From Massalongia carnosa (Eukaryota), in contig OZ287067.1 in assembly GCA_965645245.1 (NCBI GenBank), forward strand, positions 434,001-498,000: DNA of 64,000 bases, written 5' to 3'. Below are positions 12,169 through 13,446 of the stretch, piece by piece. Each line of letters starts with the position of its first letter. The stretch's first letter is position 1. Under the pieces are notes generated by a model. It made no database searches. It had not been told where the DNA came from and saw only the letters and a program-made list of their open reading frames with translations. The position numbers were made by a program, and so were the translations under genes.

Positions 12169-13446
12169 ATGTATTTCATCAACTTCCTTGCTATTGCTTT
12201 GGGCATGATGGGAACAGGGCTCGCTGCTCCTGTTCTAAGCACTGGTCAGAGCATCCCGAAATCTAGTCACATGATATTCTGACGCTCTTTAGCTGATCTC
12301 GACCGTGTCATCGAAGGCGCTGGAGGCAATAAGAACTACGAGCGGGGTGTCGAAGGCGCTGGGGGCAACAAGAACTACGAGCGGGGTGTCGAAGGCGCTG
12401 GGGGCAACAAGAACTACGAGCGGGGTGTCGAAGGCGCTGAAGGCAACAAGAACTACGAGCGGGGTGTCGAAGGCGCTGGGGGCAACAAGAACTACGAGCG
12501 GGGTGTCGAAGGCGCTGAAGGCAACAAGAACTACGAGCGGGGTGTCGAAGGCGCTGGGGGCAACAAGAACTACGAGCGGGGTGTCGAAGGCGCTGAAGGC
12601 AACAAGAACTACGAGCGGGGTGTCGAAGGCGCTGAAGGCAACAAGAACTACGAGCGGGGTGTCGAAGGCGCTGAAGGCAACAAGAACTACGAGCGGGGTG
12701 TCGAAGGCGCTGGGGGCAACAAGAACTACGAGCGGGGTGTCGAAGGCGCTGAAGGCAACAAGAACTACGAGCGGGGTGTCGAAGGCGCTGAGGGCAACAA
12801 GAACTACGAGCGGGGTGTCGAAGGCGCTGAGGGCAACAAGAACTACGAGCGGGGTGTCGAAGGCGCTGAGGGCAACAAGAACTACGAGCGGGGTGTCGAA
12901 GGCGCTGAGGGCAACAAGAACTACGAGCGGGGTGTCGAAGGCGCTGGGGGCACCAAGAACTACGAGCGGGGTGTCGAAGGCGCTGAGGGCACCAAGAACT
13001 ACGAGCGGGGTGTCGAAGGCGCTGAGGGCACAAAGAACTACGAGCGGGGTGTCGAAGGCGCTGAGGGCAACAAGAACTACGAGCGGGGTGTCGAAGGCGC
13101 TGAGGGCACAAAGAACTACGAGCGGGGTGTCGAAGGCGCTGGGGGCAACAAGAACTACGAGCGGGGTGTCGAAGGCGCTGAAGGCAACAAGAACTACGAG
13201 CGGGGTGTCGAAGGCGCTGAAGGCAACAAGAACTACGAGCGGGGTGTCGAAGGCGCTGAAGGCAACAAGAACTACGAGCGGGGTGTCGAAGGCGCTGGAG
13301 GCAACAAGAACTACGAGCGGGGTGTCGAAGGCGCTGGAGGCAACAAGAACTACGAGCGGGGTGTCGAAGGCGCTGGAGGCAACAAGAACTACGAGCGGGG
13401 TGTCCAAGGCGCTGAAAGCAACAAGAACTACGAGCGAGGTGCTTAG
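12169..13446 (+). CDS. Secreted tandem-repeat peptide precursor (putative dikaritin-type RiPP precursor), 409 aa, 2 exons
   Basis: ATG 12169. Signal-peptide-like MYFINFLAIALGMMGTGLAAPVLST. 48-nt intron 12245-12292 (GTCAGA..CTGAC..TTTAG; unspliced it contains an in-frame TGA). Then ADLDR + 29 x 13-aa units GVEGA[G/E]G[N/T]KNYER + GA, with TAG at 13444-13446. Divergent from the UstYa gene. Confidence 0.9.
12307..13437 (+). repeat. Coding tandem repeat, 29 x 39 bp
   Basis: Unit ggtgtcgaaggcgctgRRggcaMMaagaactacgagcgg repeated without indels. Confidence 0.98.

Follow-up and report, generated by a model that had tools for sequence, protein, structure and literature searches.

Organization of the Locus

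The window, which is the whole 64-kb stretch of DNA analysed here, contains a repetitive precursor gene and a gene of the UstYa/DUF3328 family in a divergent arrangement (Table 1). The N-terminus of the precursor has a hydrophobic core, followed by a small-residue cut site before APV. This secretion signal, which is also expected of a dikaritin precursor, was recognised by eye, and it is homologous to the N-terminus of a paralogous precursor on contig C6. The predicted intron contains an in-frame stop. The first-pass annotation had placed the feature at 12301..13446; the end is correct, but the start sits at the Asp-Arg junction and exon 1 was missed.

Table 1. Features of the cassette, in positions of the window.
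Feature	Position	Strand	Description
UstYa/DUF3328 gene	10165..11253	-	PF11807 matches; 5-exon gene model; 274 aa
UstYa exons	11253-11022, 10972-10838, 10774-10638, 10549-10459, 10394-10165	-	gene model
Divergent intergenic region	11254..12168	.	915 bp, common to precursor and UstYa (head-to-head)
Spliced precursor gene	12169..13446	+	one 48-nt intron; product 409 aa
Precursor exon 1	12169..12244	+	start ATG 12169; 76 nt; signal-peptide-like N-terminus, judged from sequence
Precursor intron	12245..12292	+	48 nt, phase 1, GT-AG, CTGAC branch site, TAG end; predicted from sequence
First junction Asp-Arg	12301..12306	+	P4-P1 = D-L-D-R; outside the homogenised array
Repeat array	12307..13437	+	29 tandem 39-bp units (13 aa), each closed by Glu-Arg
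Tail and stop	13438..13446	+	two residues; Glu-Arg retained by the last unit

The units follow the consensus GVEGA[G/E]G[N/T]KNYER, and TRF describes the array as 39 bp in 29.0 copies with 96% matches. Six unit variants occur, in 14, 9, 3, 1, 1 and 1 copies, with synonymous variants among them. The 29 copies show no difference at codons 9-12 of the unit (K, N, Y, E), and the Arg codon is CGG in 28 copies and CGA in one. The protein consists of tandem Tyr-containing cores, as in dikaritin precursors, with the Tyr invariant in the 29 units. The contig of run X1 that carries the end of the array continues into the downstream sequence.

Two earlier observations on the junctions are borne out by the spliced model, namely that the 409 residues hold no KR, RR, KK or RK pair (zero of each) and that the units end in YER, with LDR before the first, so that every junction is [D/E]-R (29 ER and one DR). 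All 30 Arg residues of the precursor lie at unit boundaries. The first junction is encoded by GAC-CGT and the repeat junctions by GAG-CGG, and the P4-P1 residues at the latter are N-Y-E-R. Since the array is one homogenised unit, the junctions amount to about two independent observations (DR and ER) rather than 30. Among shuffles of the circular 13-mer, 83% lack a dibasic pair and 25% place D/E before R; the absence of such pairs is therefore informative only against the family norm, which is KR/RR. An alternative splice restoring KR was considered and rejected: a single alternative acceptor preserves the long frame, and the 401-aa version that it gives is also free of dibasic pairs.

In contigs from four sequencing runs of three studies, the DR/ER codons show no alternative letter at a share of at least 5%; one of the runs may be the source of the window itself, and a variant confined to one unit would stay under this share. 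A divergent strain with 13 differences over about 2.35 kb keeps ER. Twelve of these differences lie outside the array, and two of the twelve fall in UstYa exons (one silent, one Ala/Ser).

The predicted UstYa protein has an N-terminal hydrophobic segment and both HxxHC motifs intact, so that the adjacent DUF3328 gene with two HxxHC motifs, characteristic of dikaritin clusters, is present. These motifs are reported to be essential in CctR (PMC12435403). Pfam was run over the stop-to-stop frames of the window that measure 125 aa or more, 65 out of 68, the three alternative repeat frames being left out. The only protease match is a retrotransposon aspartyl protease at 163-1593, and among the scanned frames no host protease, tyrosinase, methyltransferase or transporter was found. 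To this extent the statement that no protease gene is present in the locus stands, and a cluster-encoded protease was rejected on the same ground. Pfam matches to transposon remnants flank the cassette on both sides.

Two other regions of the window were recorded. At 6161-7438 (+), 2.7 kb from the UstYa gene, an intronless APH-family phosphotransferase gene lies between MULE remnants. The region 16020-24648 (+) holds an 892-aa ORF without a Pfam match; beyond this ORF come an SNF2-helicase-like gene, spread over several frames, and other ORFs of no known family. The region may be a large mobile element.

Paralogous Cassettes in the Same Genome

The genome (52 Mb in 25 contigs) holds 30 matches to PF11807, which group into 18 loci. 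The other 17 loci were inspected 10 kb on each side. A repeat precursor was found at five of them, with KR or RR at the repeats in all five cases, and none was seen at the remaining 12 within this distance. Protein and DNA searches revealed no second copy of the window precursor in the genome.

The closest paralogous cassette lies on contig C6 at about 1,018-1,021 kb. Its UstYa protein is 51% identical to that of the window, and four intron positions and phases are shared; its precursor gene has a 76-nt exon 1 and a 47-nt phase-1 intron, homologous to those of the window gene. Both cassettes are divergent UstYa-precursor pairs, and both precursors have Tyr-containing units with x-N-Y. They differ in the unit itself, which in the paralogue is 16 aa long, is present in seven copies, carries extra Tyr residues and has KR at all seven junctions. 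When the two precursors are aligned, A-V-K-R of the paralogue matches the first junction of the window precursor, and its unit KR matches ER. As the exon layout of both genes is identical and KR aligns with both DR and ER, the Arg positions of the window precursor are homologous to Kex2 sites. The paralogue has KR at both homologous junctions, so that ER/DR is most simply read as derived from KR, and probably is. Both window junctions are also shorter than their counterparts, which makes codon substitution and codon loss indistinguishable.

The window UstYa gene and its C6 paralogue differ at 45 of 61 four-fold sites. The duplication that gave the two cassettes is old by this comparison of codons, which does not date the change of the junctions. 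Outside the genome, P0061, which its source names as Teloschistes flavicans, shares 55% identity with the window UstYa and is about equally close to the C6 paralogue (53%). A FastTree phylogeny (59 columns, 41 rows, none dropped) places the three in one group with a support of 0.915, without settling the branching order within it. P0061 is the one close UstYa match, and a sequencing run that contains the locus bears the label lichen metagenome, so that the host is most likely a lichen-forming ascomycete.

The KR arrays of the genome contain sporadic variants of the type seen in the window. In the C16 paralogue, the codon before Arg is AAG at eight junctions and GAG at one of the nine, a one-base difference between KR and ER. 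Another C6 precursor has one Met-Arg unit among its KR units. It appears from these arrays that variants of the KR-to-ER type arise in them and could be swept to all copies. This is the starting point for one alternative, in which a mutation destroying KR spread through the array by concerted evolution and the decaying cassette now yields no product. The sporadic KR-to-ER and KR-to-MR units of the two paralogues agree with it, as do the position of the cassette among transposon remnants and the persistence of the KR paralogue in the genome. We consider this very unlikely, however. The 29 units and the five-exon UstYa gene are free of stops and frameshifts, the units differ by synonymous variants, and the unique first junction is likewise acidic-Arg. 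The cassette parted from the KR paralogue long ago, although this leaves the junction change undated, and the divergent strain keeps ER and has only two of its 12 non-array differences in UstYa exons. The first pass had held that its interpretation would fail if relatives all carried KR here, ER then being a recent loss of function. The first half of that concern has substance, given the KR at both junctions of the closest paralogue, but the locus does not have the look of simple decay.

Several features of the other UstYa loci deserve a record. The seven Tyr-rich, KR-type 16-aa units of the cassette paralogous to that of the window lie at about 1,020.8-1,021.3 kb of C6 (L040), and a gene for an S10 carboxypeptidase is found about 3.4 kb beyond its UstYa gene on the other side. 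The second C6 precursor (L046, about 2,309 kb) has 20-aa units with KR plus an invariant Tyr-Gly-Arg, one unit having Met-Arg; a short Tyr core may lie here between KR and a monobasic site. The C16 precursor (L043) is built of 17-aa units beside a UstYa gene, with one Glu-Arg among its nine junctions. Units of 36 aa are repeated beside UstYa on C2 (L044), and units of 24 aa with E-R-R on C3 (L041). Near-identical UstYa copies at C7 36 kb and C7 2,713 kb (the contig ends) and at C1 3,537 kb, with no repeat precursor within 10 kb, suggest subtelomeric duplication.

Relation to Known Precursor Families

The first group of comparison is that of the dikaritin precursors. UstA (ustiloxin), PhomA (phomopsin), AprA (asperipin-2a) and GigA (epichloecyclins) share with the window precursor the signal peptide, an adjacent DUF3328 gene and tandem Tyr-containing units of similar length (here 13 aa). 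The closest in organization is the asperipin-2a type, with its minimal layout of a single DUF3328 gene and its C-terminal Tyr; asperipin-2a itself has the core FYYTGY and a four-gene cluster (PMC6514808). The window differs from the dikaritins in having no dibasic site, no EDYXI motif, 29 units and no sequence homologue that could be found. A tyrosinase, methyltransferase, transporter or peptidase was likewise not found by Pfam in the long frames. The cores are not flanked by dibasic sites, as they are in dikaritin clusters, so the precursor is filed as a variant and not as a plain member of the group, although it would be expected from its sequence to work like a dikaritin precursor.

The EDYXI motif and the tyrosinase gene that define the ustiloxin/phomopsin subtype are both missing. 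A likeness between the VE of the unit and the VED of UstA/PhomA, proposed earlier, does not hold: in EDYXI, as described in PMC6339444, ED stands immediately before Tyr, whereas in the window the single Tyr of the unit is C-terminal and VE precedes it by 8-9 residues.

The second group of comparison is that of the KEPs, as defined by Le Marquer (2019) and Umemura (2020). The window precursor resembles them in its secretion signal and in at least three repeats of 8-100 aa closed by Arg. It fails the dibasic filter by which they are defined, i.e., at least three repeats between KR/KK/RK/RR. The third group comprises the reported monobasic substrates of Kex2, such as K28 with its Glu-Arg and K2PP with LxxR, where Arg at P1 follows a non-basic P2 as it does here. 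Those are single junctions of pro-domains or subunits, in contrast to the 29 tandem sites of the window, and the K2PP rule has Leu at P4 where the window repeats have Asn.

Fit of the Junctions to Kex2 and Kex1

The specificity of Kex2 is known mostly from yeasts, and is taken here largely from citing papers. Glu is listed among the top five alternative P2 residues (PMC8528282 citing Bevan 1998), and in K28 Glu-Arg was reported to be as efficient as Lys-Arg (PMC13449100 citing Riffer 2002). Monobasic sites are described as confirmed in killer toxins (PMC13211469), and cleavage at single Arg was observed in KEPs expressed in Pichia (PMC9769878). Small or acidic residues at P1' and P2' are favoured (PMC2515848). 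A non-basic P2 is usually paired with an aliphatic P4 (PMC8528282; PMC6624476; bioRxiv 10.1101/2020.05.27.120113), Asp at P2 is placed outside the favoured set (PMC8528282), and some Arg sites are left uncut (PMC6624476).

The repeat junction, E-R followed by G-V-E, agrees with an extended rule of Arg at P1, a tolerated P2 and small or acidic residues at P1' and P2'. At the first junction, P2 is Asp, outside the favoured set. The aliphatic P4 of the LxxR-type rule is absent from both, as P4 is Asn in the repeats and Asp at the first junction. Judged by their residues, the window junctions thus depart from the dibasic rule and from that of the aliphatic P4 alike. By comparison, eight of nine other monobasic boundary contexts, which were picked by hand, have I/L/V/M/A at P4, the ninth being the single-unit Met-Arg variant.

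One Kex2 gene was found in the genome. When mapped by hand on the yeast alignment with the table in PMC2515848, the lichen Kex2 conserves the six S1 residues and the four Asp of S2; two of its S4/S6 positions are acidic as in furin, and Tyr212 is replaced by Lys. A Kex2 with a remodelled S2 pocket was rejected as an explanation, as the acidic S2 is kept and no adaptation to an acidic P2 is seen. A Kex1-like S10 peptidase with a transmembrane segment and an acidic tail is encoded on contig C2. A leader of the Ste13 type (XA/XP) was also rejected, since the units start with G-V.

The first-pass annotation had concluded that the precursor needs monobasic cleavage or another protease. The second of these is dispensable: with Glu tolerated at P2 and KEPs cut at single Arg, a new protease is not needed. 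The release of the units at basic residues by a different enzyme, such as a monobasic aspartyl protease of the yapsin type or a trypsin-like one outside the cell, is nevertheless an alternative, which we regard as quite unlikely. It would account for junctions that match neither the dibasic nor the aliphatic-P4 rule. Yapsins are reported to have a true monobasic specificity and to be able to stand in for Kex2 in Pichia (PMC6624476), and the genome has 26 PF00026 matches (A1 aspartyl proteases, unclassified). In addition, most epichloecyclins are reported to persist in a kexB mutant, but that species has a second kexin (PMC10540207). The long frames scanned in the window offer no candidate gene for such an enzyme. 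Yapsins are described as cutting after Lys too, which speaks against them in view of the invariant Lys found three residues ahead of Tyr in every unit; the homology of the window Arg positions to the KR sites of the paralogue is a further argument against this alternative.

Proposed Maturation Pathway

We favour, at a probability of roughly 0.55, the reading that in this lichen-forming ascomycete the two genes make up a RiPP cassette of the dikaritin type, whose acidic-Arg sites, known from the gene models, are probably cut by Kex2. The precursor would pass into the secretory pathway, where Golgi Kex2 would cleave after each Arg; it would tolerate Glu or Asp at P2, sub-optimal as they are, and be aided by the small and acidic residues of G-V-E after the cut. 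The single Arg would then be taken off by Kex1, leaving 12-mers that end in K-N-Y-E. For the two main units in this Arg-free form, the predicted monoisotopic masses are 1265.55 and 1193.53, and one oxidative cross-link would change them to 1263.54 and 1191.52. The chemistry described for the DUF3328 family is copper-dependent and gives a Tyr-based cross-link (PMC12435403, PMC6514808). The window enzyme would join Tyr to a nearby upstream residue in the same copper-dependent manner, and more trimming is possible. The acidic-Arg junctions would go back to an ancestral cassette with KR junctions. Slow cutting may be offset by the copy number, which is large (29, compared with about 2-9 in the KR precursors of the genome); this is speculation.

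A further alternative is that Golgi cleavage of the junctions is poor or absent, and that the DUF3328 enzyme acts on an intact or partly cut chain. The product would then be a multi-core polymer or ladder with a structural or storage role, or the cores would be excised later at non-Arg bonds. In its favour, two independently evolving junctions have both turned to an acidic P2 and a poor P4, and even the longest KR arrays of the genome are exceeded in length by this array about 3-4 times. The order of cleavage and cyclisation is described as only speculative even for ustiloxin (PMC6514808). The model has no precedent in the literature search, and it leaves unexplained why Arg is kept at 30 of 30 boundaries, including that after the last unit, where an uncleaved polymer does not need it; homogenisation, it should be added, accounts for 29 of the 30. 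On balance we hold it to be improbable, and the cut by Kex2 remains the preferred reading.

Dibasic-Free Precursors and Genome Mining

Homologues of the window precursor were sought at several levels. None was found among proteins of 210-671 aa or of 30-209 aa. A phmmer search of 1.84 billion proteins gave 58 matches, and inspection (43 short ones of up to 330 aa, and the long ones by their start) revealed no fungal-type precursor with the window unit. An atlas search with the precursor returned nothing above 0.80. The unit motif was found neither in the three supplements of PMC7329392, which may not list sequences and may be incomplete where long, nor in the supplements of PMC12048977.

A scan of metagenome contigs with P0061 as the query identified 21 UstYa loci. 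Repeat precursors occur at nine of them and collapse to five unit families; none was seen at the other 12, many of which are short. By predicted gene models, three of the five families use KR and two lack a dibasic pair, which lends weight to the earlier suggestion of a dibasic-free class. One of the two (L060, L062 and L063) has K-V-K-P-R before Gln. The other (L077:6400-6700, minus strand) is a two-unit precursor beside UstYa, with V-E-A-R and A-E-G-R. The UstYa genes of both families fall outside the group of the window gene in a short tree, which hints at separate origins of the dibasic-free precursors. Together with the six families of the genome, three of 11 precursor families lack dibasic sites, in a sample that is small and biased by the P0061 query.

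The first pass had also claimed that mining approaches key on dibasic sites and would miss this precursor, and three published screens are indeed built on them. The screen of Umemura (2020) needs KR, KK, RK or RR (PMC7329392), method 1 of Vogt (2022) cuts in silico at KR/KK/RK/RR with an added visual check for repeats, and that of Le Marquer (2019) uses KR, RR and KK (PMC6339444). For the first and the third of these, dibasic sites are the sole way of finding a precursor. As the dibasic filter fails, the window precursor is absent from KEP screens by construction. A survey of lichen RiPPs based on Kex2 sites and repeats reports no repeat precursors in its two clans (PMC12048977). The blind spot of dibasic screens is real, since precursors without dibasic pairs recur in the metagenomic families.

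Le Marquer states that "almost all" of the ust-RiPS precursors of Nagano have Kex2 sites and that Kex2 may cut unusual ones; given the "almost all", exceptions may already stand in Nagano's paper. In the mostly open-access literature searched, outside which Nagano 2016 and the work on AprY lie, no DUF3328-linked precursor with acidic-Arg junctions only was found described. What appears to be new is a dikaritin-type precursor with such junctions, most likely still handled by ordinary Kex2.

A broader reading would be that a considerable part of the RiPPs linked to DUF3328 have dibasic-free precursors and have stayed hidden, and that the acidic-Arg precursor, at odds with both Kex2 rules at two junctions that evolved independently, is matured without Kex2, either through a different protease or in the form of a cross-linked chain of several cores. 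We consider this combination doubtful; if true, it would give fungal RiPPs a new, Kex2-independent route of processing. Should Kex2 simply cut ER, as preferred here, what is gained is an improved rule for mining together with one new peptide family, rather than new biology. A rule based on Arg at P1 would recover the window locus and the two metagenomic families as extra precursors. The genome also offers a natural matched pair of ER and KR cassettes with homologous enzymes, which eases testing of the specificity of a filamentous-fungal Kex2 and of the order of cleavage and cyclisation.

The L060, L062 and L063 precursors lie about 1-2 kb upstream of the UstYa match, and their 27-aa units contain two Cys and one Tyr. 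The Gln that follows their Pro-Arg could possibly become pyroglutamate.
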